From assembly GCA_965153455.1 (NCBI GenBank), contig OZ234493.1:23116213-23180212 (forward strand): a stretch of DNA of 64,000 nt, written 5' to 3'. This document shows positions 17,501 through 53,868 of this stretch, piece after piece. Source of the DNA: Sphagnum compactum. Its lineage: Eukaryota. Made by a program: the position numbers and the translations under genes. Under the pieces are notes generated by a model. The model was not told the origin of the DNA and ran no database searches. It was given only the letters and a program-made list of their open reading frames with translations. Within the stretch, counting starts at the first letter, position 1; each line of letters opens with the position of its first letter.

Positions 17501-17967
17501 TTTTTGTTTTGGGGGAAGTTTTTTAGCATTAATGCTTTGTTTTTGGTTCTTTTGGATTGCTGAAGACACTACTGACATCATTAAACTGGAAGGAAAGAAA
17601 AACCAAAAGGGACTCTTCCTCATAATCGTTGACTAGAGAATTTTGCAAGATCAAAACAAATTGGGCCTTTTTCTTCAAAGCAAACTAGAAGGGTTGTTGC
17701 CAGATACCACCTTTTATGTTTTGGATGGTCAGCTTGAATTTTTGTCCTTCTCTGAATCTTTGCATTTGAACAAGTGAAGGCCCCAGGAGAAGGCCTAAAA
17801 ACAAGGAAATGAAATACACCAACCAAATTCTCCATAAGGGATCTAGGGTGATGAGTGTCGGCAAACTGCTTCCCTCTTCACATTACAACCCCAAGTTCCA
17901 ACCTTACTATGTTACTAGCCTATTGAGGTTTGATGTCTTGAGGATGTTGAGAATGTCACCATTTTTC

Positions 17968-18351
17968 AGCCATAGTTACCCAGCACCCACCAGTGCACCA
18001 TGAAGGATGAATGGTAAGTCGTCAGGAAACACTTTTCTGTTGGGTTCCAGTTCTCTAACTAACTATGGTGATTAGCTCAGTTACTTTTTTTTTTCCTTAC
18101 CTACCTACTAACAACCCACAAGCAGGTCATTAGTAGGTAGGTAATAAAACAGCCCTTACCTACGTATAAACCATCTACTTACCTAGAAGCTGCCTATTTT
18201 CCTAACTATCTGCCTATATATGAGACCTATTCCCTACAGAATTGGTTACCAAGGAGAAACCAAATATTACCTCAGTTGAGGTGCATCCACAACTGAGTAA
18301 TAATGAACATCTAGTGGATGGTGGCTTGGTGGGTGCTGGTTCACTGTGGCC
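17968..18351. mobile_element. Non-autonomous Mutator-like (MULE) MITE
   Basis: Termini agccatagttacccagcacccacc...ggtgggtgctggttcactgtggcc with a perfect 9-bp TSD ccatttttc (17959-17967 and 18352-18360). Homologous to 51045-51685 in the opposite orientation. Confidence 0.75.
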
Positions 18352-18529
18352 CCATTTTTCTGGAAGTTGTTTTTTTTTCTCACTCTTACCCTTGTCCTGC
18401 AACTGGAAAACTTACTAGTCTCATCTTGACCTAGACTATTGACCCGCAGGATACAAATGGTGCAACCCTGCAAAACTCTATTCATAGACACATTGTAGAT
18501 TAGGAAAATGTACAAGGGGATAAGAAAAA

Positions 18530-31820: not shown

Positions 31821-34242
31821 AATGCACTCAAGCTACCTACACTAGTTTGACGCTTTTTAATAACCAAGAATGTAAATAGAACATGTCTCTTGAAAACACC
31901 TCACAACTTGGTAGAAATGAATGAGGGTGTTCACATGTGTGCTTAAGCTTAAGAACATAGAGAGAATTGAGGGAGGAAGCCTTCACCAACATAATGCAGA
32001 TTCAAAAAATTGAAAAGACATGCAGATCGAAATCGAAGAGACATGAACAATTGCCCAAAGGGCCATTTGTAAATTGAAGGAATAACAAGAGTTGCCACAT
32101 TGCCCACCATGGGTTAGAGGTAAGTTAGATAACAAAGGTGAAAATTCTACAGTGCATTATGTGAAAGGTAAAACCTTATGGAGAGGGCATTCTCAAAATA
32201 AAGAGCCTAGGATGAGACGATAAACAAAGTCTAGCCCCACATTTTAAGAATGTTCCTCTCCCATGGGCTTTACTTATTGCAAAGCACAAGGCAAAATTTG
32301 TCATGAACCAAACCTATGTAGATCACAAAGCCTATGAGTGAGAGGGTTCTTATGCCTACTCCTAAATAGTGGGAGGGTTCTTACACCTACAAGTAGGCAT
32401 AATTTCCCTCCCATCCTTGAGAGGTAAAGCATAATATCCCTCCCAATTTGTAAGAGGGAAATAAATGGATATAAAGGTGCCCTCCACATACACTACAAAT
32501 TTTCTGCGGGTGCTTTACATGTAGGTGTGAGAGAGAAGCATTAGCCAGTGTAAAAAAGACCTATGAGAATGACATCCATTTGGATGATAAATATTCAACA
32601 CACTAAATTGGAAACACATGGTAGTTAGCATAGTGAAACCGAAGTGGATCATCCATCAAGGCCCAAGCCCTAAAACTTACATGACTTCACACTATCGTCA
32701 CGCAAGAAGTCGATCGGTAGCGGTGTAGCTTCTCGCCTGTGCGCAATCATCTGGCACTGATTTGAGCAGAGCTGCGAGGGGACTCAAACGAAACATGTCG
32801 TGTAGGGACATTCTCAACTCATTTCATCTGCTCGGGAGTTGTGCAGCGAGCAGTGAGTTGAGAGAGTCTGCTGAAGAAGCTGTTTTGGTTTCCGATACGC
32901 TCTGCTCACTGGTGACTTTGTTATTCCGGCGCCAGCGAACTCCAAAACTGTTGGAGAGGTTGGTTGTTTTTTTTCGCTTGGTTTGTATCGGATTCTTCTT
33001 CGTGACATGTCATGGCAGTGCGCCGACAAATAACCCTTGGCTCGCGCCGCCGCTTTGGTCTTATCTTGCGTGAGTGACAGACTTTCCCTCTACTTCTGGT
33101 TCTGTTCTCAGCAATTTTGTTTGTCCCGATGTGCCGTATGTGATGTCGATTAGTTCACATTTGAGCAAGGTCTTGAGGTGTTCAGTCGTTTTTCCTTATG
33201 CGAGTTTTCCGACTCCTGAAGCAGCATGTAGCCCTAAGGATTTAGTGCGACACTCAGAGTCCTGCTTGGTTCGGCAAGCTTCGCGTCATTCTTCTCTTTC
33301 ATCATGTGTACGCATTAATCTATAGCTTGGTAAAGAGTCAAGATCGAGCGATTTCTCTGAAGCATTGGACAATATGAATCGCACGTGACAGGTTCTGGCC
33401 ACAGGGCCCTTGCCTCTTGTGGTGGAGATGTTGGAACAACTGCAGCAGGTCAGTTCTCAGGCTTGGTTTTTGAATGAATGTCGCTGTTAATAAATGCCGA
33501 GTAATCTAGTTATGCAATGTCTTACTTGAACCCTCTCTGGCACAATCTATATTTATCTGAATCTACAAGATCTGATACAATCCATGCAAGATCTGTCAGA
33601 GATGGAAAAAGCATGGCCTGCATGCATGGGGTGACATCAAACTGAACTGAAATTTTGAAGTAATTTTTTGTCTCCAATTCTGAACATACAAATATCGCAC
33701 AGATCTTCACTAAAAAATATCCATGGGATTGTGCAAATTGGAGGAGGCCATAACAACTGCACTTGCTGAAGCTTTTCGGAATTAAACGCTGGATTGAATT
33801 GTATACTGATAGTGTATGTGACAACTGATGGAAGTGCAATCTCCAGCATTGTGGCTCATAGATGAATGTAGTAGATGCCATGCTATGATGAAAGTCCATG
33901 TGAGGTTGCATGCATTTGATTGGTTACTACAGTCTATGCAGGCCAGAGAGAAATACTTTGGCGGAAATTCTTTTCAGATCCTTCACAGTGGTGGGATAAC
34001 AGACCAGAGAAGGTGAATAATTTTTGTCCCAATTTCCTGATGGAGGATGTCAATATGGTTTCCTCAGTCCTTACAGCATGGTCTGCCTGAGCTGTGAGGT
34101 AGCCATGGCTGATTAGCTTGATTTGGATTTTTGGGATTTTTGGTAATAGGTGAATGCAAGATACCCTGACTTCAAGCATAAAAAGACACAAGAGGCACTC
34201 TGGCTTCAGGACCGACAAAATCCTCCATGGGTAGCAACAGAG

Positions 34243-36717
34243 ATGGTGGCAATAGCACCAGGGACTTTACAATTGGACAGTTTTTCATGGAATAAAAGGC
34301 TTGCAAGATCTGTCAAGGCTGGTCAATATGAAAACACAATCAAGCTTTTCCAACAGATGCAACAAGAAGGTACTTGTCCTGACAGATTCACTTTTGTTCA
34401 AGTACTTAATGCATGTGCTAACTTACGAGCACTTGAAGATGGGAGGAATGCTCATGAACAGACCATTCAAAGTGGATGCGTGTCTGATATCTTTGTGGGC
34501 AGTAGCCTAGTTCACATGTATGTCAAATGTGGGTGCATGGAGGATGCTATGAGAGTATTCAGCCAGATGCCCTCACGTGATGTGGTATCATGGACTGTCA
34601 TGATATTTGGACACATAAGATGTGGGCAAGGGCAGAGGGCCTTGGAGCTGTTTCGACAAATGCAACAGGAAGGTGTGCAACCAAACCCTGTGACTTTTGT
34701 GGGGGTCCTGAATGCATGTGCAAGTTTGGTGGCACTTGAAGAAGGCAGGTGTGCTCATGAGCAGATCATTCAAAGTGGTTGCGAGTCTGATGTCTCTGTA
34801 GGGAATAGCCTTATTGACATGTATGGGAAATGTGGGAGCATGGAGGATGCACGAAGAGTGTTCAGTGAGATGCCCTCACGCAATGTGGTCTCTTGGACTA
34901 CCATAATATTTGGATATGTGAAATCTCGACAGGGGCACAAGGCATTGGAATTATTTCAACAAATGCAACAGGAAGGTGTGAAACCAAATCTGGTCACTTT
35001 TGTGGGGGTCCTGAATGCCTGTGCGAGTGTACTGGCACTTGAAGAGGGCAGACGTGCTCATGAACAGATCATTCAAAATGGTTGGGAATCAGATGTTTCT
35101 ATTGGAAGTAGCCTTGTTGACATGTACACCAAATGTGGGAGCATGGAGGATGCTTGGGGAGTATTCAACAAGATGCCATCACGGGATGTAGTCTCTTGGA
35201 CTGCTATGATATTTGGACATGTGAAATATGGGCAAGGACTTAAGGCATTGGAATTATTTCGACAGATGCAACAGGAGGGTGTGCAGCCAAACACTGTGAC
35301 TTTCATGGGGGTCCTAAATGCATGTGCTAGTCTAGTGGCACTTGAAGAGGGAAGATGTGCTCATGAGCAGATCATTCAAAGTGGCTGTGAGTCAGATGTA
35401 TCTGTAGGGAGTAGCCTCATTGACATGTATTCCAAATGTGGGAGCATGGATGATGCTTGCAGAGTGTTTGACAAGATGGTGTCCCGTGATCTAGTCTCTT
35501 GGAATGTCATGATGTTGGGGCATGTGAAATGTGGACAAGGACAGAAGGCATTGGGACTATTTCGGCAAATGCAACAGGAAGGTGTGCTACCAAATGCTGT
35601 GACTTTCATGGTGGTCTTAAATGCATGTGCCAGTGTAGTGGCACTTGAAGAGGGAAGGTGTGTTCATGAACAAATCATTCAAAGTAGCTGTGAGTCCGGT
35701 GTGTTTGTGGGTAATAGTCTAATTGACATGTATGCCAAATGTGGGAGCATGGAGGATGCCTGGAGAGTGTTTAACACAATGCCGTCACGAGATGTGGTCT
35801 CTTGGAATGCTATGCTTGGAGGATTTGCATTGCATGGGCATGGTGAGGAAGCTCTGGCACATTTTGAAAGAATGTGTGAAGAAGGTATAGAGGTAGATAA
35901 TGTCACTTTTGTTTGTCTTCTGTCCGCTTGTAGTCATGCAGGCCTGTTGTGTGAAGGCCTGCGCTCTTTTGGTTCCATGAGCACAGTTCACAAGATTTCT
36001 GCAAAATTGGAACACTACACCTGCATGGTTGACCTTCTTGGGCGTGCCGGCCATCTGCATGAGGCAGAGGATATGATCAAGATGATGCCCTGTAAACCAG
36101 ATGTGGCTGTGTGGATGGCCTTGCTTGGTGCTTGCAGAATTCATGGTAATGTGGAAATGGGAGAACGCATCGCAAAGCACATTCTGGAAGTGGACCCTGG
36201 AAATGCTGCAGGGTATGTGCTGCTATCAAACATCTATGCTGCTGCTGGCAAGTCGGATCTGAGTGAGAAAGTTCAATCACAGAGAAAGGAAAGGGGTGTG
36301 AAGAAACAGCCAGGTCGTACCTGGATTGAAGTTAATAATGAGGTGCATACATTTGTAGTAGATGATCAAGATCATCCCCAAATTATAGAAATCCGTGCAG
36401 AACTGAAGCGATTGTACGGGCAGATGCAAGAGGCTGGGTATGTGCCAGATACAAAATTTGTGCTACATGATGTGGAGGAAGAAGAAAAGGTGTATCATTT
36501 GTGTCACCATAGTGAGAAACTGGCTATTGCATTTGGGCTCATCAGCACACCTCCTGGTACTACACTCCGGATTTTCAAGAATCTCCGAGTATGTGGGGAC
36601 TGCCACACTTCCACCAAGTTCATTGCAAAACTAGTTGGGAGAGCAATCATTGTCAGGGATGCCAATCGCTTCCATCACTTTGAGTGCGGTGTTTGTTCTT
36701 GCAGGGATTATTGGTGA
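34243..36717 (+). CDS. PLS-class pentatricopeptide repeat protein with E1-E2-DYW deaminase domain (organellar C-to-U RNA editing factor); true start uncertain (ORF open from 34150, possible upstream exon)
   Basis: Five P1-L1-S1 triplets plus P2-L2-S2 (18 PPR motifs), E1/E2, PG box (PGRTWIEV), HSEKLA, CGDCH and terminal CSCRDYW. Uninterrupted reading frame. Confidence 0.95.
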
Positions 36718-48070: not shown

Positions 48071-51044
48071 ATTGAGACTCAATTTAAGTCATTGAACTAC
48101 AATTGGTGTATGGATCAATTGTGACCAAAAGTCTTGGCCATTCAAATGGTGATTAAAATTTAGTTAACATTTTTCAACAATCAAGATTTTTTCAATTTAT
48201 TTTACTCTTAGGACTAAAGTTGTTGAATTACGATTGGGGTGTGAATCACTTGAGACTAGAAATCTTGACCGTTCAAAAGGTGAGCAAAATCTAATTGTCA
48301 CTTTTCAACAATCAATATTTTTATAACAAATTAAGTTTTTTCTTGTTTACTTTGAGAACTTGATTCAGGTGTTGGATATAATGGATTGGATTTTTTAGTT
48401 TTTTGTGATTATCATTGTTAGTCACCATTGGAATAAAGTTTTTACCTTTACATGAAAAGTTATTTCTTTGATTAAGGTTGACCCCAAATTGACCCTAGGT
48501 TGACCTTGAATTGATGTGACATTGGAGTTCGTTGGTGTCAAAATAGACATGATTAACATGACAAGCTAACATTGATAACCTTGAAACAAAATTTGAAATT
48601 ATTATTTTGAAAACTGAAAAAAAATATTCATGATGTAATGGAATTTTTTTTGTTTTGAATTTCCACCATTTTTTGAACATAAAAAGGGGCCATCAACCAC
48701 AATATTTTTTAAAAAAATTCAAAAACGAAAATTATAAAAAACTTAAATGGAAATTGAAAATTCTACAATAGGTTTTAGGACTTGTAGCTAGAATAGAAAA
48801 TGATTTAAATTTTTTTATATTTCCAAGTATGGTATGTAACTAAAATATGGCTAAATTTTTTATGAATAAGATTTTTGAATAACACCACTAACATCTTCAA
48901 GTATATGTGAAGGATTAAATTGTTGTGTGTTTCAATATATACTAATAAATGCAATATCCAACATTTGAGTAATGATTTCAATTGGTTCAAAGTGGATGAT
49001 TGAACTCATGTATAGATGTTGGTAGTTCAAAAAATGTGCAAAAACTCAATAAACCATTCAAGTATAATTGCAAAGCATCAATTTACATATGTTTCAATAT
49101 ATTTTAATAAGTCCAAGATGCAACTTGTGAATAATAGTTTTAACACATTAAAAGTGAATGGTTCAATTCATGTACACATGTTAAACATTGAAAAGATGTG
49201 AAAAATCATTAGTTCATTCCAATATAAATGTGAGGTCTTAAATCGTTACATGTGTTTTAATAAATTATGGTAAATGTAAAGTACAACCCATGAACAATGG
49301 TTTTAATATGTTAAAAGTGTATGGTTCAATTCATGTACCATGTGAACAATTGAAGAAATGTTTTAAAAATTTATTAACCTATTATAATGCATTGTGTAAA
49401 TAAAACTAAAGATTATTTCAGTTTCAAGTCAACAAGTTTGAAATGATTAAAAATTTAGATAAGTTTAAAATTATATTCATAAGTGAACATTGTAATGAAT
49501 GTTACAACTATAAACAATATTGATCATTAATTAATGTAACAAGTCACTTGCAAACTAAAAATGTCTGAATGTGATTGAAATATAGTCAAATTAAATAGTA
49601 GTCACCATGTGTGGGAGAGAAAAAAAAGAAAAACAATTCTTGTGAAAGGTGTTATCTCGTCTTGGACGGTTCTTAGAATTGAGTTGAAATTGACTCAATT
49701 TTCAAGCTAGTTTTCACCTCGAAGATAGTTAAGCATTACCATTTTTGTTACCCATTTTTGGAAATTACCCCCTTTAGTTATCACTTGATTGAAACAATCC
49801 ATTTTTTCAAAAAAAAAAATCCAAAAATCTGAAAACCACCTAAGGTAATTCAAGATATCTAAGGTAGTTTTTTGTTATAGGGTCTAGGGGTAGGGGTAGT
49901 CTAGGGGTAGGTAATCTAGGCAATCCATGTCTATTAGTTGTTTGTGCATCCTGATGTGAGTGCATTCCAAAGCTCAAAGTTTGTTTTTCTTCAATGGGTC
50001 ACTTTAATTGGCCGATTTTGATTGGCATTGTTCTTAACGTTCCCCAAATAGAAGCTTTTAACTACCAACACAATGATGGGGGAAAGGTTCCTCTTTAATT
50101 TAACTATATATAATACAAGCTCACATTCTTGGAAACAGGATATGGAACAAAGGATATGGGACAAACTATGGTGCAATTAGGGACTATCTCTACACTTTCC
50201 CTTTGGGCACAAGAGACAAAGAAGCATGATTTGAGCAAGTGAATAACTTATGAGCCACTAATTCTTCAGTCACCAACCTGATATAAACCGTCGGTAGAAC
50301 CAGACCTATCAAACCTGTTTCTCAAGAATGTGAAAATTTCCTAAACCCCAGTTTTAACACTCATGAAATCTCACTTCGCTGAAAATAAATGATACGCGCT
50401 TTCTTGGACAAGAAATTCTATAACATTTCAATCAGTTTCCTGGCACCGAGTTGACAAATTTGGCACCCAAGCTGTCAAGCAATCAAGTGAGCTGACAAAC
50501 CCTGACAAACGCATTCAAGTATTCATGCCCATACCAGTGACTGCGCCAATGAAACCGCGAAACGAACTGTCTTGAATCTGAACAAATTGAATAAGAGATC
50601 GGATTATAGTCCCGATGCTCTCAACAGAGTAGGGGAAGGGAAACTAATGGCGTTGGTTTCGCTGGTGAGACACGGCAGCAAGTTGCAAATGAAGCTGACG
50701 ACAATTAGGCTAGGGCCATGAGATCAGTGAACTATATCACCCACCAGCTGCGCACCATGACTCCGTTGAGGACATTCGTCCTAAACTGATACGACATAAA
50801 CAGACTATACAGTGGTGGTTGTACCGGTGGGTTGCTGGTTCACTGTTGCCGGCAGACTATGAACAGGATAATCTTTTACCGACTGTGCGAATATAACAAC
50901 GGATCTACAAACGTTGGGTACATACCAAGATATGGATTGATCAGTTTGTGTTTGATGAGTTTGGTTTTAAACAGTTGTAGTGGAACTGGTCGGCAACTGA
51001 AACAAGTCTGCTAATCTAATCAATCACCTAGCCAGGATCAAGTG

Positions 51045-51685
51045 GGCAACAGTGAACCAGCATGCACCATCCACTGGATGCCTGATAATACTCAGTTGTG
51101 GATGAACCTCAACTGAGTTGGTATATGGTTTCACCTTGGTAAATCAATTCTGTAAGAAATAGGTCTCACATATAGGTAGATAGGTAGGAAAAGTAGATAA
51201 CAAATAGGTCTCATATACAGGTAAATAGGTAGGAAAATAGATAACAAATAGGTCAAATATATAGGTAGATAGGTAGGAAAATAGATAACAAATAGGTCTA
51301 ATATATAGGTAGATAGGTAGGAAAATAGATAATAAATAGGTCTCATATATAGGTAGATAGGTAGGAAAATAGATAACAAATAGGTCTCATATATAGGTAG
51401 ATAGGTAGGAAAATAAATAACAAATAGGTCTCATATATAGGTAGATAGGTAGGAAAAACAGTAATTACTAGGTAAGTAGATGGTTTATACATAGGTAAGG
51501 GCTGTTTTTATTACCTACCTACTAACAACCTGCTTGTGGGTTGGTAGTAGGTAGGTACTTAAAAAAGGCAACTGAGCTAACCACCATGGTTAGCTAAGGA
51601 ACTGGAACCCAACAGAAAACTGTTTCCTGACCACTTATCATTCATCCTTCATGGTGCACTGGGTGGGTGCTGGTTCACTGTGGCT
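51045..51685. mobile_element. Non-autonomous MULE-like MITE carrying an expanded 44-bp minisatellite
   Basis: Termini ggcaacagtgaaccagc...gctggttcactgtggct. 9-bp TSD gatcaagtg/gaacaagtg (8/9). Reverse-complement homolog of 17968-18351. Confidence 0.75.
51157..51457. repeat. 44-bp tandem repeat, ~7 copies
   Basis: aaataggtctcatatataggtagataggtaggaaaatagataac starts at 51157, 51202, 51246, 51290, 51334, 51378 and 51422. Confidence 0.95.
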
Positions 51686-52351
51686 GAACAAGTGGGCTAG
51701 ACTGAAAAGAAATTAATAATGTGATAGTCCTCAAGTAGGCGACTCTGGTCTACTTGAGAACTTGCATGACGATGCAGCAGCTCAATGTTTTTCCAGGAAT
51801 TATTTTTTTTGTTTGTAGCCAAAGTGAGGATCATCGCCAGGAAGATGTAGAAAAAGTGGCAATCATAGGTAGAAAGATTTAGTCAAAATCTGGCTACAAA
51901 CCCGAACATTTCATACAAATCTTTCATCCTCCTTTATATTTTTGGCTAGTTACACAATGAAAACCAAAATTATATAATAGTAAACCTGATGGTTTTTTTA
52001 CCTTTTTTCCCCGTCACTTTTGGCGACTGAAAACCTCCAAAATCACTTATTTGGCGGAATTTAAAATTGTAATGTCGGTTTTTGGCAAAATCTCGCCAAT
52101 TAAAAAACTAAAGAACAAGTTTAGCAGAGTCCTGAAGGCGCTGGCTGCTTCAAGCCTCAAGGACTAGTTCAAATACCAGCTCTCCAAGCAGCAGCTGTGT
52201 GCATCGTGTGCAAGTTGCAACGTATACATGAGCTCGTAGAACATCTGTTTCACTCCGTCGTCCCTCAACTCCACTTCCTTCTATTTCTGCAGTTCAGTTG
52301 TTGCTGCTTAGTGTTCTATATCCAGCGCTGCCGGGAGACGACGTCCACAAC

Positions 52352-53325
52352 ATGGCAACAACAACAGTCAAGTACGTCGATGCTGCATAACTGGCTGTTT
52401 CTATACTCCAGCTAGCTAGTTATCTCCTGCTGTGCACTGTAGCTGCTCGTGATGTTGCTAAGTTGTTGCGCTTGATCGTTGTTCTCTGTTTCTCACACAA
52501 GTTTTTTTGACATCAACTCATCTCCATGAACTAGACTTCGAGATTAGTATTTCCCCTAAATACATTTCGAGAATGAGCAAACGCTGAAGTACCATAACCA
52601 GGGTCCATCTGACTATAGCTGCCAAACGTGTACGTGCAGAGAAGGGTACTAATGCATTTGTGGCGTTTTGGACAGACAAGTCGATCTGAAACTTGCATAG
52701 AGAACGATGACGGTAGTCCTTGCATGAAATAGATTTCAATTGAAGTTGTCATGAACATTGCAAAACTATTAACATTGCAGCTTGACACATATAAGACCGG
52801 TGTCGCGAGACAAACCAGCTGTAACCGGCTGCACTCTCAGTAACTGCGATCGTTTCTGTTACATTGTTCGTTTTGAAAATTTTCTTTTCATGTAGCATAT
52901 TTCAAGCTTTAATCACGAGTGGTGAGAAATTTCCTGTCGCGAATATGAGAGTTGAAGGGTGTTTGATCTTCTGGAAACTAAAAAATAAGGTTGGATAATA
53001 TATGTGCAGATCATCACTGCCTGCCGGCCTCTTACCGGTTGTCATAGCATTTCTTCTGATGACGACCCCGGCTTTATACGTGACCTGCGACATCGTCACG
53101 GCCGACGTGAACGCATTCGCCTGTCCCTATGACGGCTGTGACTATATCGCCACAATTCCGGAAGGAACAGCAGTATTCGTATACTGCATAGCTAACGGCG
53201 TAGACATCAACGGTGATTCGCAATGGGATTACGTGGGATTAACTAGCGATGGCACCTTAGTTGGCTATGTGAGTGATTATTACGTCGATTGTGACGGAGT
53301 AGCTTGTGTTGGTCAGAGTTGCTAA
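52352..53325 (+). CDS. Small secreted Cys-rich acidic protein with a microbial SH3b-like domain; exons 52352-52371 and 53010-53325 (111 aa); alternative single-exon start at 53002
   Basis: caacATGG start, AA|GTACGT donor and tgtgcAG acceptor join in frame to give MATTTVKSSLPAGLLPVVIAFLLMTTPALYVTC-DIVTADVNAFACPYDGCDYIATIPEGTAVFVYCIANGVDINGDSQWDYVGLTSDGTLVGYVSDYYVDCDGVACVGQSC*. Signal-peptide-like hydrophobic stretch. The GxxVxxxC..GxxINGxSxWD...GYVSDYYV pattern resembles actinobacterial/fungal SH3b modules. Confidence 0.75.
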
Positions 53326-53868
53326 GGATTGCGCAGTAGATCACTACTACTTGACCTGATGATCACCAACATAAGTACTTCCGCTCATTGCATGTGATTT
53401 ATAACACCCAATTCCTACAGTTCCCAATCTTCTCCCAGTCCTCAAAGATGCTTTGGTGATCAGTTGTTGATCATCATCTCCATGTCAAAGTACCTTTCTT
53501 CAACTAGTATCGTAATTTGTTTGTTCCAGCACGTCATTTTGCTGATCATAATGCAGCCCTTCTTGACGAATTCTTGATATTATGTTTGTAGGTAATAACT
53601 AGTGATGATCAGCTGCAAGTGTATTAAACTTGTTTCTATAGTGCAGCCAGCTCCAATACGCTCAGTCCATGCCGTTGAAGTAAAGACACTGCATGTATCC
53701 TGGCATGTGTAATGTTGGAACTGTGCCACCAAAGTGTACTACACTCGTCTCCAGACAATAAATGTCAAGTGAATTTTGTTGTTATGATTTTGTCTTTGAT
53801 TTCATTATGATTAAGGGGTCTTTGACAAGAGGTATACTAGACGCTAGTAGACGACATCAGTTCGCTTA

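Follow-up and report, generated by a model that had tools for sequence, protein, structure and literature searches.

Gene structure, splicing and transcription

The 64,000-nucleotide stretch of Sphagnum compactum DNA analyzed here (contig OZ234493.1, positions 23,116,213 to 23,180,212; hereafter called the window, in whose own numbering all positions are given) carries on its forward strand, at 52352-53325, a peat-moss nuclear gene of two exons, the product of which is a 111-aa precursor of a small SH3b-like protein. An earlier reading made from the sequence alone had proposed a two-exon model with canonical, in-phase splice sites, and this model is borne out both by the sequence and by the joint between positions 52371 and 53010 in contigs of three sequencing runs. 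The gene comprises the following elements:

52221-52351, + strand: 5' untranslated region (UTR), approximate start (RNA contigs begin at 52221-52231); 96-98% identity in six syntenic loci
52352-52371, + strand: coding part of exon 1, 20 nt, ATG GCA ACA ACA ACA GTC AA, i.e. MATTTV plus 2 nt of a Lys codon
52372-53009, + strand: spliceosomal intron, 638 nt, phase 2, donor GT at 52372-52373 and acceptor AG at 53008-53009
53010-53088, + strand: exon 2, part coding for the putative signal peptide, KSSLPAGLLPVVIAFLLMTTPALYVTC; 96-99% nucleotide identity in syntenic loci
53089-53322, + strand: exon 2, part coding for the mature SH3b-like domain of 78 aa, which is acidic and hypervariable with six invariant Cys
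53323-53325, + strand: stop codon TAA, as read in the sequence
53326-53776, + strand: 3' UTR, approximate end (AATAAA at 53757-53762, RNA contigs reach 53776-53800); 94-96% identity in syntenic loci

The start codon occupies 52352-52354, exon 1 is 100% identical in the six syntenic loci, and exon 2 extends over 53010-53325 including the stop. The junction AA/A rebuilds the Lys codon, giving MATTTVK/SSLPAGLL... or, for the full start, MATTTVK/SSLPAGLLPVVIAFLLMTTPALYVTC/D.... The same N-terminus is found in the annotated Sphagnum proteins P0003, P0013, P0014 and P0020 and, with one change, in P0019. In S. balticum, S. troendelagicum and S. jensenii, annotated proteins begin likewise. A metagenome protein (P0022) runs from the 5' UTR across the spliced junction, and one of the syntenic loci (L008) is a spliced, cDNA-like contig. 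The best protein matches come from Sphagnum, at 87-90% identity (S. balticum 90%, S. fallax 87%), and a metagenome protein reaches 95%.

Transcription was followed in assembled contigs of two metatranscriptomes (X1 and X2) and of a run labelled "RNA?" (X4), aligned to positions 52150-53800. The splice joint 52371>53010, with 638 nt skipped between GT and AG, was found in contigs of all three. Word depth amounts to 183-607 over the exons, compared to 11 (X1, X2) or 0-4 (X4) over most of the intron, and it is zero in the bin 52150-52205, upstream of the transcribed region. The RNA thus shows that splicing occurs as predicted and that this type of gene is abundant in field moss metatranscriptomes, rather than that exactly this allele is expressed.

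Two peculiarities of the untranslated regions were noted on this occasion. A piece of the 3' UTR (53382-53549) has a depth of 890-1600, contributed by several contigs in two metatranscriptomes, compared to ~340 over the coding exon; either further gene copies or transcripts share it, or it is a repetitive element. A three-codon upstream open reading frame (ORF; ATG AGC TCG TAG, 52228-52239, + strand) lies right where the transcribed region begins; with RNA contigs starting at 52221-52231, the mRNA may include it or not.

The N-terminus of the precursor, regarded from the outset as signal-like, contains the hydrophobic core LLPVVIAFLLM, which is nearly invariant in our alignment of 20 Sphagnum sequences. 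Together with the disulfide-rich domain that follows, this core suggests that the protein is secreted, with the probable cleavage site behind the Cys of ...YVTC. The mature part would then comprise 78 aa with six Cys, 11 Asp, one Glu and neither Lys nor Arg, in agreement with the composition (six Cys, 12 Asp/Glu, no Lys/Arg) counted previously. The six Cys are invariant in the 20 aligned sequences and are presumably paired in disulfides; cutting the signal earlier, after TPA, would add a seventh Cys, which is replaced in two of the 19 sequences that cover its column. The scarcity of basic residues sets the Sphagnum proteins apart: Lys and Arg together number at most two in the domain of 21 of 22 Sphagnum variants, compared to 3-12 in nine further plant-like sequences counted, those of Physcomitrium and Marchantia among them. 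In acid water the walls of Sphagnum act as strong cation exchangers, and we infer that an anionic protein free of Lys and Arg would stay mobile there.

Fold, relatives and origin of the domain

The SH3b-type motif and fold proposed from the sequence gain support from phmmer, from profile searches, and from AlphaFold (AF2) modeling combined with Foldseek and VIA-align. The AF2 model, computed from 68 sequences with the mature domain of the window placed first, has a predicted local distance difference test score (pLDDT) of 94.9 and a predicted template modeling score (pTM) of 0.84, and its seven strands form an SH3b fold (an earlier run on the shallow set of 20 Sphagnum sequences alone reached a pLDDT of 52 and was discarded). 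The top Foldseek matches are the structures 8b2s, 8b2f and 8b2g (E 2e-5 to 1.5e-4, template modeling score 0.76-0.82), which VIA-align superimposes on the model with Z-scores of 13.0, 12.8 and 12.7, respectively, and a root-mean-square deviation of 1.4-1.6 Å over 71-72 residues at 26-31% identity. The superposition places residues 4-81 of the model on residues 1-72 or 1-73 of the chains, i.e. it covers the full length of the domain. The next VIA-align matches are NlpC2 of Trichomonas (Z 8.9), an SH3 domain of a phage endolysin (Z 8.0) and other SH3b or SH3 domains, and all top structural matches belong to one of these two classes.

At the level of sequence, phmmer retrieved four fungal chains from the PDB (E 0.0011-0.037), and a family profile built from the 20 Sphagnum sequences found 231 proteins at E<=1e-3 among 1.84 billion representatives. 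The Pfam domain SH3_3 (PF08239, clan SH3) was recognized at E<=0.001 in 33 of the 40 profile matches scanned, many of them fused to CHAP, NlpC/P60, amidase, glucosaminidase or LysM domains, and two variants of the syntenic locus (P0013 and P0020) exceed the SH3_3 gathering score (30.3 and 31.1 vs 27). The nearest named cluster in the ESM Atlas is a 73-aa Ascomycota family called "putative SH3b" (score 0.92), which we take as a lead only. The only NCBIfam match, to GsmA, scores 15.9 bits where 240 are required, and was set aside. Judged by the predicted structure, the SH3b assignment is right, and the closest solved relatives are the binding modules of fungal muramidases.

The same profile search was topped by a group of much longer proteins (P0026, P0028-P0031 and P0033; 624-963 aa), in which a conserved domain at the N-terminus is accompanied by a membrane-like segment and by four to eight SH3_3 repeats in tandem. 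Their high rank results only from the summed scores of the repeats; the N-terminal domain of one of them has a weak match to MUG113.

The SH3-like domain for cell-wall binding (CWBD) of fungal muramidases is, according to its published description (Moroz et al. 2023, PMC10394673), a module of 73 aa that binds Micrococcus cells and does not bind Avicel/cellulose. It holds triglycine in a zone flanked by the RT and n-Src loops, and carries two disulfides, C9-C53 and C33-C72, in all examples of its authors (PMC10394673). The moss domain resembles it in size (78 aa), in the fold over its whole length, and in the motifs VN..., G..V.i.C...G..vnGd..WD... and YV.DYYV; moreover, the moss Cys after the third strand (VYC) and a C-terminal Cys match C33 and C72, which suggests the same pairing. 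The modeled moss domain belongs to the subtype that fungi use as the bacterial-cell-wall-binding module of GH24/GH184 muramidases. On the other hand, the RT loop of the moss domain contains a CxxxxC pair, and an additional C-x3-5-C-x4-C tail is present; the domain is encoded in a plant by a gene with an intron, is strongly acidic and also hypervariable, and stands alone, without a GH24 or GH184 muramidase domain, the 111-aa precursor containing no catalytic partner, in agreement with the sequence-only reading. A word-based search for longer, fused relatives gave two matches, neither of them plant-like, which is weak evidence in the same direction. The moss protein therefore represents a stand-alone subtype of its own and, strictly speaking, does not belong to the fungal family.

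The SH3b (Pfam SH3_3) modules of bacterial cell-wall hydrolases and the small secreted proteins of the Actinobacteria type are retrieved by the Sphagnum profile, and the RT-loop pattern R-x-C-x-x-T-S-C of many Sphagnum variants is that of small proteins from high-GC bacteria and agaric fungi. In contrast to the bacterial modules, the allele in the window has no recognizable Pfam similarity, is eukaryotic and interrupted by an intron, lacks an enzyme partner and has extra disulfides. The NlpC/P60 proteins of Trichomonas vaginalis (PDB 6BIQ and 6BIM; Z 8.9 and 8.0) provide another case of a bacterial SH3 domain in a eukaryote; however, there the domain is fused to an active peptidase, and the identity to the moss domain is only 10-11%. 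The Trichomonas NlpC/P60 genes were acquired by lateral transfer. Finally, stand-alone SH3 genes without a catalytic domain occur in a cell-wall context in the lysis modules of Drexlerviridae phages, but their setting is phage and intracellular lysis (PMC13164509), and the likeness is one of description only. Altogether, the view that lysozyme-associated fungal proteins and Actinobacteria-like proteins are the nearest relatives outside plants is supported.

The same C-terminal Cys tail is found in homologues from Physcomitrium patens (PNR35205.1), Marchantia polymorpha (Mp5g08700 / MARPO_0086s0074) and M. paleacea (KAG6547887.1), as well as in several sequences from public run assemblies and metagenomes. 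Plant-like members score 69-108 bits against a profile of the plant-like domain (which is partly their own training set), and the best other sequences score 67.5, 63.7 and 57.2. The gene is thus no oddity of this plant, as had been suggested by its not being known as a typical land-plant family: the family is old in bryophytes, common to mosses and liverworts, and not specific to Sphagnum. A second Sphagnum locus (L013, positions 1900-2448, and L014, positions 2499-2822; P0027 type) is separated from the window gene by a synonymous divergence (dS) of ~1.1 with a ratio of nonsynonymous to synonymous rates (omega) of 0.22; in L013 an intron of 210 nt interrupts the same Lys codon in the same phase-2 position, and the signal peptide is different. 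We found no paper that describes SH3b proteins in bryophytes or names Mp5g08700 or the Physcomitrium homologue PHYPA_023104. The family may already be included as a bare orthogroup in large catalogues of horizontal gene transfer (HGT), such as the 1,809 HGT-derived orthogroups reported in the bryophyte pangenome paper (PMC12513842).

As to the origin of the family, most of the 231 profile matches look bacterial or fungal. The named relatives outside plants are from the agaric and zoopagomycete fungi Crassisporium, Mycena, Crepidotus and Ramicandelaber and include one Curtobacterium protein, and many further relatives lie on contigs that resemble high-GC bacterial DNA. Since the domain is overwhelmingly microbial and patchy in eukaryotes, a horizontal origin from a fungal or bacterial donor, as proposed at the outset, is plausible, and the gene is evidently integrated into the host genome and transcribed. 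Given the homologues in Physcomitrium and Marchantia, any transfer must predate the split of mosses and liverworts, and the domain was probably first acquired from a microbe before that split. The tree (101 rows, 83 columns) is poorly resolved, with 50 of 97 inner branches open and with fungal and bacterial rows intermixed, and points to no donor.

The recent acquisition by Sphagnum implied by the sequence-only reading has become extremely improbable. It would agree with the microbial type of the domain and with the fact that the best-scoring named matches are all from Sphagnum, but not with the Cys tail shared by Physcomitrium and Marchantia, nor with the intron position shared by two Sphagnum loci at dS ~1.1. 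Furthermore, a single clade of the 36 plant-like rows is not rejected (approximately unbiased test, p-AU 0.879), and the constrained tree is better by 25.7 log-likelihood (lnL) units than that of the free quick search; the group was defined after seeing the scores and the tail motif, which weakens this test. At least within the bryophytes, these data are thus consistent with a vertical distribution.

It is also conceivable that no transfer into plants took place at all, and that the family descends vertically from an older gene of eukaryotes or streptophytes, possibly a transglycosylase with an SH3b tail, which was lost in vascular plants. Two proteins from EukProt transcriptomes carry the plant-like Cys tail and group next to the bryophyte sequences; one of them (P0074) combines an SLT transglycosylase domain with SH3_3, the other (P0172) consists of SH3_3 alone, and the two might stand for the ancestral, enzyme-linked form from which the bryophyte miniproteins arose. 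However, the occurrence in eukaryotes is patchy compared to the bacterial- or fungal-looking majority of the matches, and among the matches listed, for which 30 clusters were name-checked, the named plants are only Sphagnum, Physcomitrium and Marchantia, with no named homologue from a vascular plant or an alga. We therefore regard vertical descent as rather unlikely, though as an alternative that deserves attention.

Diversifying selection and the proposed function

A scan of metagenome contigs with the Sphagnum alignment identified 22 loci. In twelve of them (L001-L012) the flanks align, at 86-95% identity, to positions 48.9-57.0 kb of the window, in one case as far as 62.1 kb, which makes these loci syntenic with it. 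In six loci compared in detail, the intron is 95-97% identical to that of the window, similarly to the UTRs and the signal-peptide coding part (see the feature list). The part coding for the mature domain behaves differently, with identities of 86% in L005, 82% in L007 and 80% in L010 and L011; only in L001 and L002 is it as similar (96-97%) as the rest of the gene.

These differences are almost exclusively nonsynonymous. According to Nei-Gojobori counts, the mature domain of the window differs from those of L007, L010 and L012 by 43-48 nonsynonymous and 2-2.5 synonymous substitutions, which corresponds to a nonsynonymous divergence (dN) of 0.28-0.33, a dS of 0.04-0.05 that equals the divergence of the intron, and dN/dS of 6.3-7.8 (binomial p 3e-4 to 9e-4); by codon position (1/2/3), the differences are distributed as 19/21/5, 23/19/5 and 23/22/6. 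Among nine distinct haplotypes, dN/dS exceeds 1 in 30 of 36 pairs, with p<0.01 in 16 of the 36, and the six pairs at or below 1 are the closest ones, with 3-14 nonsynonymous differences. A one-ratio GY94 model fitted to 77 gap-free codons gives an omega of 4.35 (F1X4) or 4.54 (F3X4), and the likelihood ratio test against omega=1 yields 2dlnL of 32.1 (p 1.5e-8) and 34.2 (p 4.9e-9), respectively. The mature domain is under strong diversifying selection. An omega of 4-4.5 averaged over a whole domain, with the intron and the synonymous sites as internal controls, is rarely encountered.

The framework of Cys residues and the core (SQWDYVG, GYV.D.YV.C) are unchanged even at the nucleotide level. 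Variability is highest in the RT loop (CPYDGCDYIA) and the turn that follows, in the segment surrounding the n-Src-type loop (IANGVDI), at the Tyr of the 3-10 helix and in the tail. Mapped by secondary-structure position only, these would be the elements that frame the ligand site of SH3 domains, including that of the fungal module.

Two other explanations of this pattern were considered and rejected. A pseudogene or a gene under relaxed constraint cannot yield an omega above 1, and here omega is significantly higher, all twelve syntenic copies keep intact reading frames, and the Cys and core residues are retained. Likewise, a mosaic generated by gene conversion from an old paralogue would have brought synonymous changes, of which there are almost none: dS in the variable part (0.04-0.05) equals the intron divergence, compared to ~1.1 for the true paralogue.

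The conserved signal combined with a hypervariable mature part is reminiscent of conotoxins and of the plant defensin-like and nodule-specific cysteine-rich (NCR) peptides. The Sphagnum protein shares with Cys-rich secreted families a near-identical signal and non-coding part, six invariant Cys with fast amino-acid turnover between them, and omega>1. The same conserved signal and hypervariable mature part are described for the mussel family MgCRP-I (PMC4558851), but the fold is unrelated, the scaffold of the moss protein being a cell-wall-binding domain of the microbial type.

Taken together, we propose that the gene encodes a secreted, stand-alone binder of microbial cell walls, the binding face of which is under diversifying selection of the arms-race kind; we put the odds of this interpretation at about 50%. 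The precursor would enter the secretory pathway by means of its conserved signal peptide, and the acidic, Lys/Arg-free domain of 78 aa would be released to the moss wall or water space. There it could bind, with a face made up of the RT and n-Src loops together with the 3-10 helix, a ligand on the microbial surface, most likely the peptide part of peptidoglycan. Having no catalytic domain, it would act by binding as such: by marking or agglutinating cells, by blocking wall turnover, or by presenting fragments to receptors. The loops of the binding face would be reshaped by selection, as is expected of a molecule that takes part in an arms race with microbes or in the choice of microbial partners.

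Several observations speak against this interpretation or limit it. SH3 folds bind many types of ligands, and proteins of reproduction and self-recognition typically evolve fast as well. The moss domain has, in the phmmer alignment, no counterparts of the fungal C9 and C53, and as the C9-C53 disulfide is thus missing, the binding site may differ. The protein of the window itself has no Pfam match. The RNA contigs are 90-99% similar to the window and probably derive from close relatives or from other copies of the locus rather than from exactly this allele, and a fourth run (X23, raw poly(A) reads) has zero reads on the stretch and counts as no test. As to selection, a single metagenome supplies five different syntenic versions, and two such genes lie on one 24-Mb contig of S. 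balticum; the syntenic copies may be alleles, orthologues from different species, homeologues or else large segmental duplicates. If they recombine with one another, the result of the tree-based test could be inflated, but the pairwise counts need no tree.

The main rival explanation is that the protein is a fast-evolving secreted ligand for recognition between plants, e.g. of gametes, of self and non-self, or in development, for which SH3b is a mere scaffold. A conserved signal, a hypervariable mature part framed by Cys, and an omega well above 1 are the pattern of reproductive and recognition peptides, similar architectures are found in other secreted Cys-rich families such as MgCRP-I (PMC4558851), and one fungal-type disulfide is missing. 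Nonetheless, the contig depth is high in field metatranscriptomes of moss or plant material, mostly vegetative shoots, every one of the nearest relatives in structure is a module by which a lytic enzyme binds cell walls, and the family has been kept in both mosses and liverworts, whose reproductive biology differs. We consider this explanation unlikely. A role closer to home, in which the protein binds the peptidoglycan layer that bryophyte plastids have retained and thereby aids plastid division or maintenance of the envelope, is very improbable: all named plant homologues are indeed from bryophytes, but the N-terminus is hydrophobic and of the secretory type instead of a Ser/Thr-rich transit peptide, six disulfide-forming Cys fit the oxidizing secretory route, and a housekeeping ligand would not drive omega to 4-8.

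If the protein does bind microbial walls, it is tempting to speculate further that the variants form a hypervariable recognition repertoire, each suited to a different chemotype of peptidoglycan cross-bridge or stem peptide, or escaping a different microbial counter-measure, so that the moss could sort, hold or suppress bacteria. This extension is tentative, and distinctly less probable than wall binding itself. Were it true, Sphagnum would use the repertoire to sort the bacteria in and on its water-filled cells, with the loss of Lys and Arg keeping the protein free of the acidic walls, and the family would amount to a branch of bryophyte immunity or symbiont choice that is extracellular, lectin-like and quick to evolve. 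We know of no counterpart of such a repertoire in seed plants.

Sphagnum peatlands depend on tight ties with nitrogen-fixing and methane-oxidizing bacteria, and to our knowledge almost nothing is known of how Sphagnum recognizes or controls them. The locus offers a small, easily expressed and probably secreted protein with a confidently predicted cell-wall-binding fold, natural variants of which differ almost only at amino acid-changing positions and thus constitute a ready-made mutational scan of the likely binding face, while single-copy-looking relatives exist in Physcomitrium and Marchantia, two transformable bryophyte models. How a land plant that diverged early reads the cell walls of bacteria thereby becomes a directly testable question. 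The family also presents a case of a microbial-type domain that was kept in plants at least since the split of mosses and liverworts and then recruited into rapid adaptive evolution.

Genomic surroundings

The window contains one copy of the gene. At 34150-36717 (+ strand) it also contains an intronless ORF of 855 aa with pentatricopeptide repeats (PPR), E and E+ motifs and a DYW deaminase domain (PPR-E-DYW), which is a gene for a plant organellar RNA-editing factor. PPR-DYW editing factors are a hallmark of land plants. This neighbor, together with the spliced RNA and the twelve syntenic loci, upholds the earlier view that the SH3b-like gene is not a contamination. That the locus could be an artefact, i.e. 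a contaminating sequence, a chimeric contig or a decaying pseudogene, might be suspected from the failure of its protein to match Pfam. Against this, a plant PPR-DYW gene lies in the same window, the spliceosomal intron is removed in RNA, the syntenic loci come from other assemblies and all have intact frames, omega is far above 1 instead of close to it, and the predicted fold is confident; the suspicion is thereby refuted, and its residual probability is negligible.

The host context is better demonstrated by the PPR-DYW gene and by synteny in independent assemblies than by repeats, on which the sequence-only reading had relied when it placed miniature inverted-repeat transposable elements (MITEs) on both flanks. 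That description is only in part confirmed: upstream there is a dispersed repeat, whereas no repeat was seen immediately beside the gene or downstream of it:

51044-51691, strand not assigned: dispersed repeat upstream of the gene and not part of it; second copy at 17962-18352 (- strand), 80-87% identity

A tandem array of 44-nt units (51146-51497, family D1, approximately six to eight units) lies inside this repeat; in the syntenic loci, too, the repeat is found upstream of the gene.

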